64,000 nucleotides of DNA from Clostridiales bacterium (GTDB lineage Bacteria > Bacillota > Clostridia > TANB77 > CAG-508): NCBI GenBank assembly GCA_015056485.1, contig SVGD01000007.1, positions 12,425-76,424 on the forward strand. The letters run 5' to 3'. Of the stretch, positions 1 through 56,342 are shown one piece after another. The translations under genes and the position numbers were made by a program. Within the stretch, counting starts at the first letter, position 1; the number at the start of each line of letters is the position of its first letter. Under the pieces are notes generated by a model that was not told the DNA's origin, did not search any database, and worked only from the letters and a program-made list of their open reading frames with translations.

Positions 1-206
1 TATTATTTTATATTAAAGTTGCAAATGAATTAAATCTTAGTTTAGATTATTTATTTAGCGAGGAATTACCACAAGTAAATACAGAAACAGCTAATAGTAA
101 GGAAATAATTGAAATGATAGATATGTTGAGTAAAGATGAGAAACAAATGGCCAATGTATTTATAAAAAATATTGTTAAAAGTCTAATTGAATTGAGAGAA
201 CAATAG
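1..206 (+). CDS. XRE-family helix-turn-helix transcriptional regulator, C-terminal fragment (5' end outside window)
   Basis: Frame 3 is open from the window edge to TAG at 204-206: ...VANELNLSLDYLFSEELPQVNTETANSKEIIEMIDMLSKDEKQMANVFIKNIVKSLIELREQ*. The motif 'LNLSLDYLF' is the typical end of a Cro/CI-type HTH. The ORF track has no start in the window, so this is not listed there. Same architecture as the XRE gene at 55202..55579, which also abuts a copy of the cassette. Confidence 0.5.
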   Translation, partial: LFYIKVANELNLSLDYLFSEELPQVNTETANSKEIIEMIDMLSKDEKQMANVFIKNIVKSLIELREQ

Positions 207-210
207 TAGC

Positions 211-340
211 TTGACATAATTTTTTGCAAAAACCTTGCAAAATCCTGCAGTATACATTCAATTTTTCAAGTGCTAAAATATTAATATGAAAAATTATATT
301 TAAAGAAAGCGAGAGAAAATCTTGGCTTTCTTTTTTTGTG
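211..340 (+). promoter_or_regulatory. Conserved regulatory cassette copy 1: TTGACA, palindrome TTTTTGCAAAAA (221-232), second TTGCAAAA (235-242), -35-like TATACA (251-256), 17-nt spacer, extended -10 TGcTAAAAT (271-279), leaderless mini-ORF ATG AAA AAT TAT ATT TAA (286-303, MKNYI), terminator hairpin AAAGAAAGC/GCTTTCTTT (302-333) plus T-run
   Basis: Near-identical copies at about 15737, 28050, 42524 and 55577. The -10 and the 17-nt spacing are conserved in all copies. The hairpin stem is conserved while the loops differ. Confidence 0.6.
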
Positions 341-359
341 TACAAAGGAGGAAATAACA

Positions 360-1625
360 ATGGCTACTTTATTAGAGAAGCATTTAAAGTTAGAAGAAAT
401 TAAAAAAATTAGGAATTGGAGGAATGAAGGATATGGATTAAATCAAATTAAAGATCTGGTTGATAAGACAAATATTACAGATGAAGAAATTGAAGAAATT
501 TTCTATGAAAATAATTCAAAACCAGACACAGAAGAAGTTGAAAAACAATTTGAGGAAGAAAACCATATTCAAGAAGTTCAGGAAGAAAATAATTCTGATG
601 AACCACCACAAGAAGAACAAGAAGTGATTCAAGAGGAAGAAGAAATAGTTGACTATGAAGAAGAATCATTAGAAGAATTAGAAGAAATTGAAGAAGATGA
701 AATTGAAATTATTGAAGAAAATCAAGTTGGAGTTCAAGATAATATTATACAACTTAAAGAAAATGAAAGATATGAAATTATTAGAGATGAAGATTTAGAA
801 GATTTTCCAAATCAACCTTTTAAAATGTATTCAGAATCAAGAAAAAACACAATGATAGAAAGTATAAAAATTAACGGAATAATAGAACCAATAGTAGTTA
901 GAAAAACTGAAAATGGAAAATATCAAATACTTTCTGGACATAATAGAAGACTATGTGGAAGAGAAGCAGGATTAACAGAATTTAAGTGCATTGTAAAAGA
1001 GAATATGTCAGAAGATGAAGCTAGACTATATATGGTTGATAGTAATTTAATGGTAAGAGATGTAATGCCAACAGAAAGAGGAAAAGCTTTAAGTATTAGA
1101 AAAGAATGTTTAAAAAATGAGAAGATTGCTTCAAAAATAGAAAATGAAATCCTACAAGATAATATAGACAAGCAAGATACAATTCAACAAAAAATGATAG
1201 AAGAAAACCATATGAGTAATGGTAATATTCAAAGATATATAAGATTGAATTATTTAATTCCACAACTTGGAGAAATGGTTGATGACAAAAAAATTAATCT
1301 AAGAACAGGAGAAAATTTAAGCTTTTTAAGTAAAAAAGAACAAAGAGATATAGTCAATATAATTGAAAAAGAAAATGTTAAAGTATCAGAAGCTATGTCA
1401 AAGAAAATAAAAAAATCTTCTGAAAATGGAGAATTAACAAAATATGTAATGAAACAAATTCTAATTAAAGAAAAAGATAAAAAACTTGAAATAAGAGTAA
1501 TATTTTATGAAGATGAAATCAAAAAATACTTCAATAATATAAACAATGGTAATGTAACAGCTAAAGACTGTAAAGACCTTATTATTGCCCTTTTAGAAAG
1601 AGAATTTGTAGAAAAAATACACTGA
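360..1625 (+). CDS. ParB/Spo0J-like nuclease-domain protein with acidic N-terminal region
   Basis: Motif ...INGIIEPIVVRKTENGKYQILSGHNRRLCGREAGL matches the ParB N-terminal domain (GxxEPixV...Y.ixsGhrR). ATG at 360 follows RBS AAGGAGG (346-352). The ORF track starts at the TTG at 336. Confidence 0.7.
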   Translation: MATLLEKHLKLEEIKKIRNWRNEGYGLNQIKDLVDKTNITDEEIEEIFYENNSKPDTEEVEKQFEEENHIQEVQEENNSDEPPQEEQEVIQEEEEIVDYEEESLEELEEIEEDEIEIIEENQVGVQDNIIQLKENERYEIIRDEDLEDFPNQPFKMYSESRKNTMIESIKINGIIEPIVVRKTENGKYQILSGHNRRLCGREAGLTEFKCIVKENMSEDEARLYMVDSNLMVRDVMPTERGKALSIRKECLKNEKIASKIENEILQDNIDKQDTIQQKMIEENHMSNGNIQRYIRLNYLIPQLGEMVDDKKINLRTGENLSFLSKKEQRDIVNIIEKENVKVSEAMSKKIKKSSENGELTKYVMKQILIKEKDKKLEIRVIFYEDEIKKYFNNINNGNVTAKDCKDLIIALLEREFVEKIH

Positions 1626-4109: not shown

Positions 4110-4346
4110 ATGATTAATGCTTTAGTTTTTGTAATATCAATAATTACTTGTGGAATTTTATTAAGAATATTTGGTTATTCTCAAAAAAATCTTATTCAAA
4201 TAATCATAAATGCACTAATAGGGATAACTGCATTATATGTACTTAAATATGTTGGAATAGCAATAACTATAAATTGGATTTCAATAATGATAGCAAGTTT
4301 TTTTGGATTACCAGGTGTGATTATAATCTTAATTTTTTCAAACTGA
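4110..4346 (+). CDS. Small membrane protein (2 TM)
   Basis: 78-aa hydrophobic ORF, RBS AAAAGGAA upstream. Confidence 0.5.
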   Translation: MINALVFVISIITCGILLRIFGYSQKNLIQIIINALIGITALYVLKYVGIAITINWISIMIASFFGLPGVIIILIFSN

Positions 4347-9395: not shown

Positions 9396-10022
9396 ATGAG
9401 TAGAATATATCACATTGTAAATTATTTGGGTTATTTAGCAGGATTTTGTTGTGTATTAATGATAGGAATGGCTGTATTTAAAATACTGACAGGAGATGAA
9501 ATGGAATATAGAAAATATTTAACAAGAATAAGAAATGGATTAATAGCATTAGTTCTTGTCCTAACAATAAGCACAACAAAGAATCTAGTTTTAACATATT
9601 TCCCATATGTAGAATCATCAGACGCAATTGGAGATTTTTCAACACTTCAAGCAACCTTAACTGATGGAACACTTGAAAAAGAAGCAAATGACAAAAAAGG
9701 GAGATGGACAATTTCGATTGATGGGGATTTATATGTAAAAACTGGTGTTAAGAAAATAAATTTTGGAAGTTTTTTAAATTCTTGGAAAAAAGATGTAGAT
9801 GTTTTCAAAACATATGATGAATGTCAAGGAATAACAAGTGGTTCAGTAGCAGAAGAAAAATATTATATGTATTGGACAGAATATAATGGGAAAAACGTAG
9901 GTCTTCTTATAAGTCCTTCATTAAAGGGATCAATACACAATGATGATGAGTTCAAGGAGCTTGTATTAAATCCCTGGATAAATAGTGGTTGTGAATCACA
10001 ATATGAACATATAGCAAATTAG
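9396..10022 (+). CDS. Membrane-anchored extracytoplasmic protein (N-terminal TM; VirB8/TcpC-like candidate)
   Basis: N-terminal hydrophobic helix followed by a roughly 170-aa soluble domain. RBS GGAGGA upstream. Confidence 0.4.
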   Translation: MSRIYHIVNYLGYLAGFCCVLMIGMAVFKILTGDEMEYRKYLTRIRNGLIALVLVLTISTTKNLVLTYFPYVESSDAIGDFSTLQATLTDGTLEKEANDKKGRWTISIDGDLYVKTGVKKINFGSFLNSWKKDVDVFKTYDECQGITSGSVAEEKYYMYWTEYNGKNVGLLISPSLKGSIHNDDEFKELVLNPWINSGCESQYEHIAN

Positions 10023-11370: not shown

Positions 11371-13202
11371 ATGAAAACAAAAGAAATTGAAATAATGCCT
11401 ATAAATCAAGAGTTATTAGCACTTATAACTCCACAAGGGATTGAATTAAAACATAATAAAGTGCAACTTGGAGAATATCAACATAAATTACAGTATGTAA
11501 GTGGCTATCCATCTGCAGTAAATGTAGGTTGGCTTTTAAATCTTAAAGACATACCAAATACAACAGTAAGTCTTGTAATAGCACCAATAGAAAATGTGCA
11601 AGAATATGTAGAAGGAATATCAAAAGGACTAACAACAGATAAAAATATTTATAATACAACTAATAACGAAGCTTTGAAAACACAAGCTGAATTTAAAATA
11701 AGATCAGCAGAAAAGATAATAAAAGATATAACAGTTGATAATATTCCGTATGTAAATGTATCTTTTGTATCAAACACAATTGGCGAAAATGATAATAATT
11801 TTAGCGAAAATTGTAGAACTGTAAGAAATAAAATTGCAGGTATGGGATTAAAAGCAAGAGTTCCTGCATTTACACAAGAAAAAGCATTAAGACAGAGTTC
11901 TCCATATGATACTTATTATCAAGATATAACTAAAATATCTAATAAAACAATGAGCTTAGAAGCATTGTTTTTAGGATTACCTTTTTCAGGAAGTGGATTA
12001 GTAGATGTAGAAGGTTATTATTTAGGAACTGATGAAGATGGAAGAATGATAGCTGTTTCGCCATTTTTCAAAGGAAATGACAGAACTAATTCTAACATTG
12101 TAATTGAAGGTTCTTCTGGTTCAGGAAAATCATTTTTGGCTAAAAAAATAATGCTAAACGAATGGTTAAATCGGTACAAAAATTTTTGCAATTGATCCTG
12201 AATCAGAACTACGCCCTATGTGTAAATTATTGGGTGGAAAATGGATTGATTGTTCAGGAGGAACTGGAAAAAATGTAGGAAGAATAAATCCGTTGCAAGT
12301 AAATCCATTGCCTAAAATTACAGATTTTGAAGATGATGAAGAAGAAGAATATATTTCAAAAAAGTCAGCATTAGGTTTACATTTAGATTTTTTAAGTACA
12401 TTTTTTAAATTATATTATCCTGAAATAACTTCTCTGCAAATGAGCTTATTGATGGAGATATTAGAAGAGTTATATAAAAACTTTAATATTACATATGACA
12501 CAGATATAACAAATATTGATTCAAATAAATTTCCTATTATGGAAGATTTATATGAGTTATTATTAAAAAAAGTAAATTCAAATATCGAGCATAAAAGAGA
12601 AATTGAAGAAATAAGAGCAGTTGTAAGAGAACTTTCAATTGGTCATCACGGAGAAATATTCAATGGTTATACTTCATTAGATTTGGACAGTAGCTTTATA
12701 TGTTTAGATGTTTATAGTTTACAAGGAGCTTCTGAAAAAGTAAAAAGATGTCAGTATTTTAATATATTAAGGTATTGTCAAGATCAAGCTTTTAAAAACA
12801 GAGAAGAGCGTTGTTATGTGGTTTGTGATGAAGCATATTTATTAGTTGATAGAAAAGTACCACAAACAATAGAATTTTTAAGAAATTTCTGTAAGCGTGC
12901 AAGAAAATATGAATGTGGCCTAATGACAATTACACAAAGTTTGGTAGACTTTTTAGCACCAGAAGTTAAGATGTATGGACAAGCATTACTTGACAACTCA
13001 ACTTATAAATTCTTTTTCGGAATAGATCGGAAAAGATTTAGAGGAAGTAGTAAATCTATATAATTTGAATCAAGAAGAAAAAGCTATATTAAGTCAAAAA
13101 GATAAAGGACGTGGATTATTCTTTGTTGGTTCAGGCCATACGTTAATTAATGTTAAAGCTCTTGATTGGGAAAAAGAATATTTAATTGGTGGTGGAAGAT
13201 AA
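11371..13202 (+). pseudogene. VirB4/TcpF-like conjugation ATPase, interrupted by frameshifts near 12180 and 13040 (track ORFs 11371..12195, 12218..13063; C-terminal tail to about 13202)
   Basis: Walker A 'VIEGSSGSGKSFLAKKIM' is present. The continuation 'AIDPESEYRALCKLLGGKWIDCSGG...INPLQV' and the C-terminal tail 'YNLNQEEKAILSQKDKGRGLFFVGSGHTLINVKALDWEKEYLIGGGR*' are in shifted frames. Both breaks sit in A/T homopolymers. Confidence 0.75.
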
Positions 13203-15450: not shown

Positions 15451-15745
15451 GCAAAAATCAATTTATGATAAGGCACTAGAAAAAAAGAAAGAGAACTTAG
15501 AAAGAGAAAATCTTTATAAAAATCTTGATTTAGATCGAGAGAAAAATACAATTATTTTTGAACAAAAAAATAATACATTCATTAAAGTATTGAATTTTTT
15601 GTTAGATACAATTGAAAGAATAATAAAATTTTTTATTATTATAATTGCTTTTATATTATTAACTATTGGAGCAACAGTATTATTCAATCCTGGTTTGAGG
15701 GAGAATCTGTTAGAAATAATTAACAATATAAATATATTGACATAA
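15434..15745 (+). CDS. Small membrane protein
   Basis: 103 aa with a C-terminal hydrophobic helix. Ends inside cassette copy 2. Confidence 0.45.
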   Translation: MLKRNKQKSIYDKALEKKKENLERENLYKNLDLDREKNTIIFEQKNNTFIKVLNFLLDTIERIIKFFIIIIAFILLTIGATVLFNPGLRENLLEIINNINILT

Positions 15746-15806
15746 TTTTTTGCAAAAACATTGCAAAATTCTGCAGTATACATTCAAGAAATAAGGTGCT
15801 AAAATA
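15737..15806 (+). promoter_or_regulatory. Regulatory cassette copy 2 (promoter part): TTGACA 15737-42, palindrome 15746-57, TATACA 15777-82, extended -10 TGcTAAAAT 15797-15805
   Basis: Same sequence family as copy 1. The downstream leader differs; see the finding on 15826..15957. Confidence 0.6.
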
Positions 15807-15974
15807 TAGTTACAAATTAAGAAAAAGGTATGTACTTTTTAAATAAGTATGTAGAGTAAAGCTATATTTTTAAAAATATTATTCTTGCTCCTTTCGGTAA
15901 TATTTTTTGTAATCCCCTTTTATATTTCTTGATCTGCATACTTATTTAAGGAGTACATAAAAAAGGAGGGTAAA

Positions 15975-25170: not shown

Positions 25171-27244
25171 ATGCGTTTTTACAATAAAATTGATTTCCCT
25201 GTTGAAGTATTAAGAAAAGCTTGGCAAGAATTTGAATGGGATAAAGCAGAAGAAAAAGTATTTCAATGGCAAAAAGATTTAACAAAAGTAGCATTTAGAA
25301 AAGATTATGAAGAAATAAAAAAAATACAAAATAAAATAGTTAGTTCGTTAGAAGCAAGAGCATTAGCTGTCAGAAGGGTTTCAGAGCAAACAAAGTCATC
25401 TCCTGGAATTGATGGTGTAAGATGGAGAAAAGACGAAGAAAAAATGCAAGCTACTATTTCATTAAATAGTACAGAATACAAGTCAAAACCATTAAGAAGA
25501 ATAGTTATACAAGATAAAAGAGGAATAAAAGAACGTAGGATTGGTATTCCTGCAATGAATGATCGTGCAATGCAAGTATTACATTCTTATGCACTAGAAC
25601 CTGTTGCAGAAGCATTTGGAGATAGAAAATCATTTGCATTTAGAAAAGGAAGAACAGCTTTAGACGCACACGCTTGTTTATGGAATAATTTATGTGATGA
25701 AACGTGTCCTGAATGGGTTTTAATTGCAGATGTAGAGAACTATTACGAATCTGTTTCTCACGATTGGTTAATGAGAAATATTCCAATGAATAAAAGAGTA
25801 TTGAAAGAACTGCTGAAGTCTGGTGTATGTTTTAATGGAGAGATTTTTCCTACTGAAGTTCGGAATTTCACTTGGTTGTTCTTTATCTCCTATGTTAGGA
25901 AATATGATACTAGATGGCCTACAATATAAGCTTTACGATTTACAAGGAGAAAAAATTACAGATTATAAAGATGGGTATATGGTTAGATTTGCAGATGACT
26001 TTGTAATAACAGCAAGAAGTAAAGAACAGGCTGAAAAGTTTAAAGTGGTAGTTGAAAATTTTATAGGAGAAAGAGGTTTAAGGCTGTCAGAAAGGAAAAC
26101 AAAGATTGTTAATGTTAGGGAAGGTTTTGATTTTTTATCAAGGCATTATATAAAAATTCATAATCAAATTAATGTTATTCCTAGCGAAAAATCCGTAACA
26201 AATTTAGAAAAAGAGTTAGAAGATTTAATATTAAATCCTGAAAAGCATTGGACACAAAGATCACTTATTCAATCAATAAACTCTAAATTGTATGGTTGGG
26301 CTACTTATCACAGAGTAGAAGAAGCAAAAGATATTTTTTCTCATATAGATGTCCTGGTTAATGCCTTGTTATTAAAGTTAATGCAAAAAACATATCCTAA
26401 TAAAAGTTTACAGCAATTAAAAAATAAATATTGGTATAAGTTACCTGACGGGAGATATGTATTTGCATTAGTAACTAATAGAAATTTTTCAGTAATTAAT
26501 TTATCAGATATTATTTTGGTAAGACACAAAAGAATGGATTTAAAGAAAAACATATTTTTAGATGATGATTATTTTGAGGAAAGAGAACAACTACAAGAAA
26601 TAAACAAAATATCTGGTAAATACAAAAGTGTTTGGGAAAGACAAGGTGGTAAATGTTATTTTTGTGGTAAGCCAATAGGTAAAGAACAGGATAAAAGGAT
26701 TATTTATAAAACATTTACAAGGATTAATACTATTGAAGATATGGCCTATGTTCACGAGTTTTGTAAAGATGATGATGTACTGTATCTTGATACAGACATT
26801 GTCCATATAAATAATAGTAAGTTAAATAATATCCTTAAAGATATACAAAAAGTAAATCCTAAAAGTAAAACAAAAAAATGGAAGTTTAGAGCGTTAGAAG
26901 ATTATTTTAGAAAAACAAATACAACTCCTATAACATTGAAATTTGCTGAAATTGAAAAAATAATTGGATTTAAACTTTGTGGATCTGCACTAAAATATCC
27001 TTCATATTGGTATCAATCAAGAAAAGGTAATATCTCAAATGCTTGGCTCAATCAAAATTATGAAATTTTGAAATTAGATTTAGAGGGTAAAAAAATAACT
27101 TTTAGAAGGGGTGTAAATAAAAGTTCAAAATTAAATATCCCACAAGTGTTTTTAACCAACAAAATTCCAGATGGTGCAAAATATGAGTTGGAGGAATTTT
27201 TTAAGTATATAACAAAAAAATATGGATTAAGCAATAAAAAATAA
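25171..27244 (+). CDS. Group II intron-like reverse transcriptase/maturase with HNH-like Cys motif and about 170-aa C-terminal extension. No intron RNA. Single-nt frameshift near 25855-25865 (track ORFs 25171..25929 and 25823..27244).
   Basis: RT0/1 'ALAVRRVSEQTKSSPGIDGV', RT2 'RIGIPAMNDRAMQVLHSYALEPVAEAFGDRKSFAFRKGRTALDA', RT3 'WVLIADVENYYESVSHDWL', RT4 'FGISLGCSLSPMLGNMILDGL' (second frame), RT5 'VRFADDFVI', RT7 'GFDFLSRHY' and an X/maturase region '...SINSKLYGWATYH' are all present. The RT4 motif continues only after a one-nt shift around 'gaagttcgg'. Confidence 0.8.
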
Positions 27245-55129: not shown

Positions 55130-55201
55130 CAATAAGCTAAAAGAAACGGCTTACGGATTATTAAAAAATTTGTCGAAAAATAATATACTGATACTAACTA
55201 T

Positions 55202-55579
55202 ATGTGGAAAGGTCGTAAAAATATGGAAGTAGCAGTAAATTATAATAAAATAGGGGACAAAATTAGAGAAAGAAGAATGTTTTTAAAGATGACACAAGAA
55301 AAATTGGCTAATGAAATAGACGTTTCAGCGTCTTTTATTTCTGATATAGAAAATGGAAGAAGAAAAATGAGTTTAGAAACTATGATAAAAATATCAATTG
55401 TTTTAAAAACAAGTTTAGATTATTTTATATTAGATAATATAAATAGTGTCAAAATAAAAAATGAAATAAAAATAGAACAATTAAAAAATTTGTTACAGCC
55501 AATTGATGAAAAAGAACAATCAACATTCTTAGATTTTACAATTAATTCAGCACGATATTTAGCAAGTCGAAAAAGATAA
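55202..55579 (+). CDS. XRE-family HTH transcriptional regulator abutting cassette copy 5
   Basis: 'MTQEKLANEIDVSASFISDIENGRRKMSLETMIKISIVLKTSLDYFI' is an HTH_3 motif. The stop codon overlaps the first bases of the cassette. Confidence 0.8.
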   Translation: MWKGRKNMEVAVNYNKIGDKIRERRMFLKMTQEKLANEIDVSASFISDIENGRRKMSLETMIKISIVLKTSLDYFILDNINSVKIKNEIKIEQLKNLLQPIDEKEQSTFLDFTINSARYLASRKR

Positions 55580-55698
55580 ACATAATATTTTGCAAAAAGT
55601 TTGCAAAATACTGCAGTATACACTCAAATTTTAATGTGTTAATATTATATTATGAACGGATTAGAGAAAGGAATTTAACATTCTTTTCTCTTTTTTTG
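55577..55698 (+). promoter_or_regulatory. Regulatory cassette copy 5 (TAAACATAATATTTTGCAAAAAGTTTGCAAAATACTGCAG; TATACA 55617-22; TGtTAATAT 55637-45; leaderless mini-ORF MNGLEKGI; hairpin AGAGAAAGGAAT-ttaac-ATTCTTTTCTCT plus T7)
   Basis: Same family as copy 1. 12-bp stem with one G-U pair. Confidence 0.6.
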
Positions 55699-55721: not shown

Positions 55722-56342
55722 ATGAGTATTAAAGTTAAATCATTAGGATTAGTGAAAAATGAAGAAATCGAAATAAAGGCAGTAGCTTCAATTGAAGCAA
55801 ATGGAATGAAAATTGATGGAATTAAAATTAATGAGAGTGAAAATGGTAATTATTATTTACAGTTTCCAGAAAGAAAATTCAAAAAGAAAAATACAGATGA
55901 ATTGATTACAACAAGATTAATGTATGTAGATAATGACCTATTTAGAAAAATAAGTGATGTTTTAATAAGTAAATATCAAGAAAAGAAGGAAAATGGAAAT
56001 TTTGAAGTTTCTGAAATAGAAACAGAAAAACAAGATGTTGTTGTAACACAATCAAATCCTTTAAAGGATCAAAGCAGAAAAACAAAAGCAATGGTAAGTA
56101 TAGACGTAAACGGAATACATCTAAAAGATATTAGATTAAATGAAAGTAATGATGGAAATTTATATTTACAATTCCCTAATAGAAAAAATAAAGACGAAGA
56201 ATATGTAGATATGTTTTATCCTACAACATCAGAATTAAGAAAACAATTAACTGAAGAAGCTATAAGCATTTATCAAGAAAAATTGCTAGCAAAAGAATTT
56301 GATGAATCAGCACAAGAACAAGAGGAAGGAGAAAGAGAATAA
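55722..56342 (+). CDS. Tandem SpoVG-domain protein (two SpoVG-like repeats)
   Basis: 'IEIKAVASIEANGMKIDGIKINESENGNYYLQFPERKF...' and 'KAMVSIDVNGIHLKDIRLNESNDGNLYLQFPNRKNK...' each match the SpoVG fold pattern (IkAvasItld..f.ihdirv....nG.fvamPsrk). Confidence 0.65.
   Translation: MSIKVKSLGLVKNEEIEIKAVASIEANGMKIDGIKINESENGNYYLQFPERKFKKKNTDELITTRLMYVDNDLFRKISDVLISKYQEKKENGNFEVSEIETEKQDVVVTQSNPLKDQSRKTKAMVSIDVNGIHLKDIRLNESNDGNLYLQFPNRKNKDEEYVDMFYPTTSELRKQLTEEAISIYQEKLLAKEFDESAQEQEEGERE

Follow-up and report, generated by a model that had tools for sequence, protein, structure and literature searches.

Cassettes and XRE genes of the window

The 64,000-nucleotide (nt) stretch analyzed here, hereafter the window, covers positions 12,425 to 76,424 (forward strand) of contig SVGD01000007.1 from a Clostridiales bacterium (assembly GCA_015056485.1; Clostridia, TANB77, CAG-508). 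It is the core of an integrative and conjugative element (ICE) that spans at least ~80 kb and comes from uncultured gut Clostridia of low GC content. The ICE genes are arranged as co-directional operons, each headed by a copy of a short cassette that carries an invariant block. Two of the five cassettes in the window directly follow genes for XRE-type helix-turn-helix (HTH) regulators, XRE-A at the left edge and XRE-B near 55 kb, an arrangement that the original prediction had interpreted as autoregulated regulator–operator pairs controlling the cassette promoters. We describe the anatomy, copy number, synteny and distribution of the cassette and weigh which factor might bind it. The relevant features are as follows.

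3..206, plus strand: 3' two-thirds of XRE-A, a Tn916 Orf9-like XRE gene (translation; full gene in locus L071; eight syntenic orthologs)
214..256, plus strand: conserved block of cassette 1, ACATAA-nn-TTTTGCAAAAA-nn-TTGCAAAAT-n-CTGCAGTATACA (alignment, exact matches)
222-242, cassette 1: dyad TTTTGCAA-N5-TTGCAAAA, a 21-bp inverted repeat made of two TTGCAA hexamers plus outer flanks
251-256, plus strand: -35-like TATACA of cassette 1 (consensus scan)
271..279, plus strand: extended -10 TGcTAAAAT of cassette 1, 17 nt from TATACA, with a predicted start at ~286 (consensus scan)
302..337, plus strand: leader hairpin and T7 tract of cassette 1, before the ribosome-binding site (RBS) of the ParB-like gene (-14.4 kcal/mol, z -2.5)
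360..1625, plus strand: ParB_N/HTH_ParB-like gene, the first of cassette 1, followed by MobL relaxase and type IV coupling protein (T4CP) genes (Pfam)
15740..15805, plus strand: cassette 2, with block 15740-15782 and extended -10 15797-15805, preceded by a gene for a 103-aa membrane protein (alignment)
15829-15959: leader of cassette 2, a long-stem hairpin of ~130 nt with a nested terminator-like hairpin at ~15872-15907 (-41 kcal/mol, z -6.7)
28058..28123, plus strand: block and extended -10 of cassette 3, preceded by a 260-aa gene without a family (alignment, Pfam)
~28146-28189: leader terminator of cassette 3 (folding)
42527..42592, plus strand: block and extended -10 TGTTAGAAT of cassette 4, predicted to drive a TED-SpaA adhesin/ArdC operon (alignment, Pfam)
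42614-42663: leader terminator of cassette 4 (folding)
55158..55193, plus strand: 36-nt block preceding XRE-B, ATTATTAAAAAATTTGTCGAAAAATAATATACT, invariant across five ICE variants that differ in its flanks
55223..55579, plus strand: XRE-B, a Tn916 Orf9-like XRE of 118 aa, in a reading frame open from 55202 (Pfam HTH_3, database forms)
55580..55645, plus strand: cassette 5, with block 55580-55622 and extended -10 55637-55645 (alignment)
55586-55610, plus strand: perfect 11-3-11 inverted repeat of cassette 5, TATTTTGCAAA-AAG-TTTGCAAAATA
55663..55698, plus strand: leader terminator of cassette 5, a 12-bp stem followed by T7 (folding)
55722..56342, plus strand: gene for a protein with tandem SpoVG domains, the first of cassette 5 (Pfam)

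At the left edge, frame 3 of 3..206 is free of stop codons and reads LFYIKVANELNLSLDYLFSEEL...ELREQ*, with TAG at 204-206; the complete translation of the fragment is LFYIKVANELNLSLDYLFSEELPQVNTETANSKEIIEMIDMLSKDEKQMANVFIKNIVKSLIELREQ*. Pfam found no match in this fragment, from which the HTH is lost. The intact gene was obtained from L071, the locus of the parent contig extending ~10 kb to the left of the window, which was recovered via the exact ParB-like protein. There XRE-A (9503-9847) encodes 114 aa with an HTH_3 domain and is the second and final gene of a response-regulator/XRE-A unit. XRE-B scores 52.1 bits for HTH_3 against a Pfam cutoff of 23, and the ATG at 55223 is its likelier start, with a better RBS and a 118-aa form that is dominant in public data.

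XRE-A and XRE-B are 31% identical (35/112). As had been noticed from the sequence, both combine an HTH with an SLDY(L/F) motif and a C-terminal tail, which measures 49 aa; for the truncated gene, the HTH was read from the full copy in L071. The start of helix 3 differs between the paralogs (SSANY vs VSASF). Within each family, the HTH and recognition helix are invariant, among the ICE variants for XRE-A (SANYISNIETG) and in 28 sequences of 69–100% identity for XRE-B. The nearest solved structures to XRE-B are P22 c2 repressor, Stl, the C. difficile transposon protein 3ivp (matched at E 3e-4) and C.BclI, and an AlphaFold2 model of XRE-B built from 28 homologs was unusable (pLDDT 49.5). Distant homologs of XRE-B or the ParB-like protein suitable for a co-variation test were absent among the matches listed, all of which were at least 69% identical, and all examined copies carried the same cassette.

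The predicted gene ends at 206 and 55579 were correct, and the distances to the cassettes required adjustment. Cassette 1 had been placed 5 nt beyond the XRE-A stop; it begins with ACATAA at 214-219 (at 213 according to the repeat finder), 7–8 nt after the stop. The XRE-B stop had been described as overlapping cassette 5; instead, its TAA (55577-55579) directly abuts ACATAA (55580-55585).

An invariant block heads each cassette

The pattern TTGCAAAA-N3-TTGCAAAAT-N-CTGCAGTATACA has five exact plus-strand matches in the window, at 224, 15750, 28068, 42537 and 55590, against 0.00 expected, and the five predicted copies are thus real. Scanning one genome per species for exact matches yielded 69 further copies in 38 metagenome-assembled genomes (MAGs) of uncultured Clostridia. 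Together with the window copies these give 74 instances, each of which was oriented and its nearest upstream gene taken. Alignment of the five window copies and of the 56 unique sequences among the 74 defines an invariant upstream block of ~43 bp, ACATAA-nn-(t)TTTGCAAAAA-nn-TTGCAAAAT-n-(C)TGCAGTATAC. It is followed by a weak -35-like TATAC(A/T), a variable 17-nt spacer and an extended -10, TGnTAnAnT, which lies 17 nt beyond TATAC(A/T) in 56/56 unique cassettes. Because ACATAA, the T-run and the -10 were outside the search pattern, the search itself did not produce their conservation. The sequence 3' of the -10 is class-specific across the 56 unique cassettes, and a second TAATAT/TATTAT-like hexamer, at about -4 to +2, is present in some classes only. 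Every cassette precedes and faces the first gene of a co-directional gene run.

A consensus promoter scan returned TATACA/17/TAAAAT and TATACA/17/TAGAAT, both with TG. The block also holds three hexamers centred on TGCA which, at intervals of 11 and 10 bp, fall on the same face of the helix. The first C of CTGCAG is variable (ATGCAG in JAAWDR), which makes it improbable that this third "palindrome" is a dyad site. We infer that the cassette consists of a sigma-A promoter, a conserved upstream binding platform and a terminator.

The leaders of cassettes 1, 3, 4 and 5 each contain a hairpin followed by U5–7, beginning about 20–30 nt past the predicted start. In cassette 2 such a hairpin is nested in the long-stem leader, which is kept in eight relatives and differs from the other four leaders with their simple terminators. 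The stem sequences vary among copies and relatives, while the design is retained, most other classes included. Rfam gave no match anywhere in the window, and the leaders thus represent no known RNA family. The leader terminators would at least close the upstream operons, and that of cassette 5 is likely also the end of the XRE-B transcript.

Size and position of the dyad

The original prediction had proposed the conserved palindrome, with a flanking half-site, as the kind of dyad that such HTH dimers bind. The 12-bp palindrome that it emphasized is too short to place two HTH units in successive major grooves, as known from the structures of the P22 c2, 434 and lambda repressors. The 21-bp dyad, which includes the flanks, has the right size and suggests a site that could accommodate an HTH dimer. 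Relative to the predicted start at ~286, this dyad lies at about -64 to -44, upstream of the -35, and only the TGCAG element touches the -35. If the start is predicted correctly, activators or UP-like elements would more typically sit at such a position than repressors would. Neither the window nor L071 holds another copy of the dyad, and none with up to three mismatches lies near either XRE start.

Both XRE units have different upstream elements of their own. The 36-nt block ahead of XRE-B is unlike the cassette, and the XRE-B proteins of the five ICE variants that share it are only ~70% identical; the block is likely the promoter or operator of XRE-B itself. It contains a perfect Spo0A-box-like TGTCGAA (TTTGTCGAAAA) at 55171-55177, within a possible TTAAAA/17/TATACT promoter. 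XRE-B may form a unit of its own that is controlled by a Spo0A-type factor or a response regulator. The promoter of the response-regulator/XRE-A unit carries another dyad of 18 bp, TGTTCAA-N4-TTGAACA (N4 here being TCGC), at L071 8527-8544, ~1.1 kb left of the first base of the window. It is placed between this unit and a divergent HTH_26 gene. In the ICE relatives, four variants of the 18-bp dyad track four variants of the HTH_26 recognition helix. This co-variation assigns the 18-bp dyad to HTH_26, and XRE-A is thereby left without an identified site.

XRE adjacency is conserved but confined to two junctions

An XRE gene lies directly upstream in 11/74 cassettes, always at the same two syntenic junctions: XRE-A before cassette–ParB (8/8) and XRE-B before cassette–SpoVG (3/3). 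This synteny indicates that the adjacency is conserved. In the window, XRE genes occur at two of the five junctions, which exceeds the chance expectation (hypergeometric P ~0.007, a post hoc value computed with three plus-strand XRE genes among ~93 genes). The remaining 63 cassettes have other upstream neighbours, such as genes for the 103-aa membrane protein, a 268-aa protein or a histidine kinase. Every upstream gene, whether or not it encodes an XRE, ends 4–28 nt before the first TTGCAAAA; since non-XRE neighbours abut equally tightly, tight abutment is no speciality of the XRE genes. The gene preceding the cassette of the 350-aa gene varies in relatives, being a 239-aa, histidine kinase, 65-aa or 260-aa gene.

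The first genes after the cassettes encode the ParB-like, 139-aa, 350-aa, adhesin and SpoVG proteins, xis88-int, xis72-int, serine recombinases and RepA_N-like proteins. Among these, the xis88-int class is a sixth cassette of the ICE: in ICE relatives it heads a gene for an 88-aa HTH_17 excisionase-like protein (xis88) together with the same 423-aa integrase, it is found on the same contigs as the other ICE classes, and its position is the left end of the ICE. Outside the ICE, the identical block precedes a 70-aa HTH_17 xis with a 427-aa integrase (xis72-int, 17 loci), large serine recombinases (after a leader of ~400 nt) and RepA_N-like genes. Non-ICE cassettes are the only kind in 24/38 MAGs, a count to be read with MAG incompleteness in mind. 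No XRE-A/B homolog was seen in the remaining 8-kb cassette loci, and no XRE-A/B-like gene lies within ±10 kb of the xis72 protein P0257 in three places (20-kb views).

These results do not support the proposal of autoregulated pairs. Each XRE gene lies upstream of the neighbouring cassette and so is not transcribed from it, and no second dyad was found at the XRE units. The cassette cores are identical, which leaves no pair specificity. The cassette also occurs next to an XRE gene in a minority of instances and on other mobile elements whose 8-kb loci showed no XRE-A/B homolog, and its dyad, judged from the predicted start, would occupy an activator-like rather than an occluding position. The more general idea that the XRE proteins bind the cassette survives: with a dyad of the right size and invariant helices, they are legitimate candidates.

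The elements carrying xis72-int have further features. The P0257 element comprises a PemK-like gene, xis, int and optional cargo, and adjoins a tRNA methyltransferase gene. Tiny elements at L116 and L117 (8788-11594) and L115 (8788-19350) likewise consist only of a PemK-toxin-like gene, the cassette, the 70-aa xis and the 427-aa integrase. They sit beside a TRAM tRNA-methyltransferase gene; in one relative, a further ~8 kb of cargo is added (serine recombinase, KilA-N, CHAT). Such elements are candidates for satellites or integration modules. In xis72-int elements, repeats of the type ACTAAAC(C/T)AAACTAAAC occur 15–40 nt upstream of the cassette (L116 and L115 9860-10000; L109 17450-17472); two ACTAAAC copies, which may be near the right end of the ICE, also occur just upstream of host-like XRE genes beyond the right edge of the window. 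The repeats may be integrase arm-type or att sequences, which would put the cassette at the extreme end of the element.

Loci on unrelated viral contigs, 35 in all, also contain the doublet TTTTGCAAAAA-nn-TTGCAAAA; by a rough estimate, about 10 of these matches could be due to chance. In several viral contigs it lies 4–5 nt upstream of canonical TTGAC(A/T)-N17-TAnAAT promoters, a placement that fits an UP-like contribution of phased A-tracts. Examples are L089, L104, L106 and L083 from IMG/VR, and a Bacteroidota-like group has a longer palindrome, ACTTTTTTGCAAAAAAGT. Additionally, an open reading frame (ORF) of 72 aa (…VKQLANQSKTKLKDIGLLGYQISEIEVKLQLEGLDLKG) is conserved 0.7–1.6 kb upstream of the xis88 cassette in six loci (for example L058 4678-4896, minus strand, and L041 1371-1589); by eye, its product resembles the C-terminal (helix-hairpin-helix) domain of the RNA polymerase alpha subunit.

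Candidate readers of the block

We tentatively favour, with confidence a little short of even, the reading that the block is recognized by a host factor or by RNA polymerase and that its adjacency to XRE genes is architectural. The XRE genes would occupy the last place of the transcription units before cassettes 1 and 5, XRE-A in a unit with its own promoter and XRE-B behind its own upstream block, with transcripts that probably end at the next leader hairpin. Adjacency would then reflect operon packing and the habit of regulator genes to lie at operon boundaries, rather than a dedicated operator for each regulator. The invariant block would be read by a factor common to all carriers, either host-encoded or polymerase itself via UP-like phased A-tracts. 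Even allowing for incomplete MAGs, the simplest reader is what all these elements have in common, the host. Several points weigh against this interpretation. All 74 instances lie in mobile-element contexts, while a host regulator is expected to have host targets (the search covered exact matches only). Strict G/C conservation in TTGCAA, TGCAG and ACATAA exceeds the needs of an UP element, MAG incompleteness weakens the argument from 24/38 genomes, and the small elements could be satellites that have adapted to a regulator of the ICE. Furthermore, XRE-A directly precedes the main transfer operon, the canonical place of a master regulator, and its helix SANYISNIETG is invariant, as is the cassette, while the neighbouring HTH_26 operator varies.

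An unlikely yet serious contender is that dimers of XRE-A and/or XRE-B bind the 21-bp dyad in every cassette and control all ICE operons as repressors or, in view of the position, activators, comparable to Rco on pLS20, ImmR on ICEBs1 or KorA on RK2; by extension, the small xis-int and recombinase elements would be satellites listening to the ICE regulator. The invariance of helix 3 of XRE-A, matching that of the cassette, is the best remaining argument for it, and the HTH and recognition helix of XRE-B are invariant as well. Supporting it further, XRE genes adjoin cassettes in a conserved and enriched arrangement, cassette 5 has the dyad as a perfect 11-3-11 repeat, the 18-bp dyad is better assigned to HTH_26 so that XRE-A has no other obvious target, and both proteins are homologous to the XRE of the Tn916-type regulatory region (33–38%, E ~1e-16). 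However, 63/74 cassettes have no adjacent XRE gene, no homolog was seen in the other loci or the three xis72-int places, and 24/38 MAGs have no ICE-type cassette. One invariant site would have to be read by two paralogs with only 31% identity and different beginnings of helix 3, the dyad lies upstream of the -35, and neither XRE has a copy of the operator at its own promoter. Rather unlikely, in our view, is that another element protein reads the block and that the cassette loads a terminator-resistant polymerase, in the manner of lambda Q at PR'-tR' or AlpA at PalpB. Polymerase started at the cassette would pass the leader terminator, and read-through from upstream would be stopped there. Candidates for the protein are the HTH_17 products of xis88 and xis72, RR256 (the response regulator encoded upstream of XRE-A, with a conserved C-terminal domain lacking an assignment), the ParB-like protein and a product of the early operon. 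Conjugative elements offer precedents for antitermination (PMC8191782, PMC11658703), as do AlpA and Q (PMC9371919). A hairpin and U-tract follow the promoter by ~20–30 nt in 5/5 window copies and also, with unrelated stems, in the serine-recombinase and RepA_N classes. Three leader classes have no simple terminator, and two of them are those of xis72 and xis88, with an HTH_17 gene in first place; the phasing of the TGCA-centred hexamers also fits. However, AlpA and lambda Q elements lie between the -35 and -10 (PMC9371919), where the cassette has its variable 17-nt spacer. The xis72 and xis88 proteins are barely similar (E 0.01–0.1), the serine-recombinase and RepA_N classes show no HTH_17 gene, and the scan of about half of the window proteins showed no Q/AlpA/NusG-like family. 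The C of CTGCAG is not invariant either, and the terminators are explicable simply as the ends of upstream operons.

Very unlikely is a purely historical origin, in which a portable promoter–terminator module was spread and homogenized by recombination, the block was kept identical by recent common descent or gene conversion instead of a binding protein, and the XRE adjacency is a by-product, genes of any kind coming to abut the module. The upstream gene of the same cassette class differs among relatives, which suggests recombination at the cassette, and ICE proteins are 70–100% identical between host species, a sign that the family is young. Against this, six copies in one ICE with unrelated flanks have an identical block and a variable spacer, which argues for selection on the block, and the XRE positions are syntenic rather than random. 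We regard as quite unlikely a broader proposal, that the block is a shared mobility regulon tag through which one trans-acting factor switches on the six ICE operons as well as the xis-int, recombinase and replication genes of unrelated small elements, only its cassette-loaded polymerase passing the leader terminators. If this were true, satellites would excise when the ICE fires; XRE-A/B, the response regulator and an excisionase-like protein would be candidates for the factor.

Other candidates were tried and rejected. Binding of RR256 through a Spo0A-like domain to tandem TTGCAAAA repeats, by analogy with Spo0A at tandem 0A boxes, is unproven, as Pfam and PDB sequence searches recognize the receiver domain only; the window protein at 27265-28047 is not an RR256 homolog. 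Alternative sigma factors (sigma-54 with -24/-12 elements, extracytoplasmic function, TcdR-like and sporulation sigmas) were compared by eye with consensus sequences, and none fitted. A sigma-70-family gene to the right of the ICE is apparently a host gene, since a Sigma70_r2 gene lies in an FtsW/PadR/XRE-TM neighbourhood beside an unrelated xis72-int element. Some relatives have an OmpR-family two-component system ahead of cassette 3; the window lacks this system, which was dismissed as a general factor. Alignment of the block with dif/Xer-like sites, considered because ACATAA resembles a Xer arm, fails past 9 nt.

Members of this ICE family are very common in animal and human gut metagenomes and bring anti-restriction, adhesin and restriction–modification cargo. 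One invariant block heads the genes for excision, DNA processing, mating and the leading region, and its reader would therefore be the transfer switch of the family, and possibly of co-resident small elements. The analysis narrows candidate work to 214-256 and a short list of proteins, and to whether the promoter needs any element-encoded factor.

Other genes of the ICE

Pfam families in the window include the ParB-like protein, MobL relaxase, T4CP, type I restriction–modification, a reverse transcriptase/maturase fragment, sortase, TED-SpaA adhesin, ArdC, methylases and the tandem-SpoVG protein. Beyond the left edge of the window, the order of genes is a tyrosine integrase gene, a divergent gene for a 156-aa XRE with four iterons, an early operon (Phage_rep_org_N to topoisomerase), the divergent HTH_26 gene, the response-regulator gene and XRE-A. 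The iterons, at L071 1857-2010 between the divergent 156-aa XRE gene and the early operon, are four direct repeats TTGTACAG(A/G)(A/G)AATTGATACAAAA spaced ~40 nt apart; they are probably operators of an ICE master repressor or replication iterons. Hundreds of gut-metagenome contigs, including some of Mb size, carry single variants of XRE-B and the ParB-like protein.

Three further candidate DNA-binding proteins are encoded in the window.

37093..37437, minus strand: XRE-C, a third XRE gene, in the cargo/insertion-sequence region with no cassette alongside (Pfam HTH_3/HTH_19; HTH_3 37.9 bits)
40961-41215, plus strand: AbrB/MazE-fold protein with a Cys-rich tail (Pfam)
41217-41468, plus strand: HTH_26 protein (Pfam)

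The first two had been named correctly as an XRE and an AbrB-like gene. The AbrB-fold and HTH_26 pair, ~1 kb upstream of cassette 4, represents further putative DNA-binding candidates. Directly before this pair, 39622-40935 encodes a 437-aa protein with six tandem DUF4379 treble-clef zinc-finger repeats, with a period of 210 nt in the DNA. Beside XRE-C, a UPF0236-family transposase is split over two ORFs (37814-39338), and the cargo region also encodes a sortase and a PQ-loop protein. The ORF at 25823-27244 combines a partial RVT_1, a group II intron maturase domain and DUF7662; Rfam detected no intron RNA anywhere in the window, and the product may be a domesticated or degraded retroelement protein. 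Sporulation families appear inside transfer operons, namely a BofA-like protein of 78 aa (4110-4346, between the relaxase and T4CP genes) and the two-SpoVG protein (55722-56342).

A megablast search of 1-25000 against plasmids and phages gave a single match of 459 nt (72%) to an unannotated Fusobacterium record without a cassette. The cassette had no match in PLSDB in distant mode, where no cultured relative was found, and literature searches with the motif strings returned nothing relevant.

Comparison with known systems

XRE-A and XRE-B resemble the Tn916 Orf9-type XRE proteins (WP_087157909.1 of C. perfringens pJIR4150; 3ivp), which have the same length of ~115–120 aa, an N-terminal Cro/C1 HTH and a helical tail of ~45 aa, and are likewise encoded on a conjugative element of Clostridia. 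Identity is 33% over 101 aa for XRE-B (E 9e-17) and 38% over 88 aa for XRE-A (E 2e-16). In Tn916-type elements, the XRE gene is antisense to orf7-orf8-xis-int, with a sigma-like orf7, in a single regulatory region; in contrast, the present ICE has two co-directional paralogs at operon junctions, with xis88-int elsewhere. To our knowledge, the DNA target of Tn916 Orf9 has not been established.

In plasmid RK2 (IncP), KorA and KorB act at repeated OA and OB palindromes in most operon promoters of the plasmid. The ICE is similar in having one short palindromic element at every major operon, with five copies in the window and a sixth class, and in that the genes for a small HTH protein and a ParB-family protein are neighbours (XRE-A, cassette 1 and the ParB-like gene). 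Unlike in RK2, the regulators lie outside a central control operon headed by the same operator, the element is also found on unrelated mobile elements, no sequence relationship was seen (no test for one was made), and binding is putative. XRE-A/B also do not accompany the cassette everywhere: they are absent from 63/74 loci and from ±10 kb in the three xis72-int places, and 24/38 MAGs have non-ICE cassettes only (in views of 8–20 kb and incomplete MAGs).

Rco of pLS20 is an XRE repressor of the main transfer promoter, Pc. ImmR of ICEBs1 is likewise described as an XRE repressor of the main transfer promoter (PMC11658703). The ICE shares with both an XRE gene immediately beside the main transfer promoter and has its xis promoter in the same regulon. 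In those systems the genes are divergent and the operators overlap the regulator's own and the target promoter, whereas here the genes are co-directional and the dyad lies upstream of the predicted -35. Among the proteins scanned, no gene for an ImmA-like protease or a Rap-like partner was seen.

The order of promoter and intrinsic terminator within tens of nt, ahead of long mobile-element operons, recalls lambda Q and AlpA (PMC9371919), conAn and canT (PMC8191782, PMC11658703), although no Q, AlpA or ConAn1 homolog was identified among the scanned proteins. Unlike at Q and AlpA promoters, the conserved element is upstream of the -35, the -35/-10 spacer is variable, the second -10-like hexamer at -4 to +2 is absent from some classes, and the class-specific leaders include no conserved RNA (no Rfam matches). 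As a whole, judged from its sequence organization, the arrangement appears to belong to an already known kind of system, in which binding of the cassette by an XRE protein would be a putative step and not the one that we favour.

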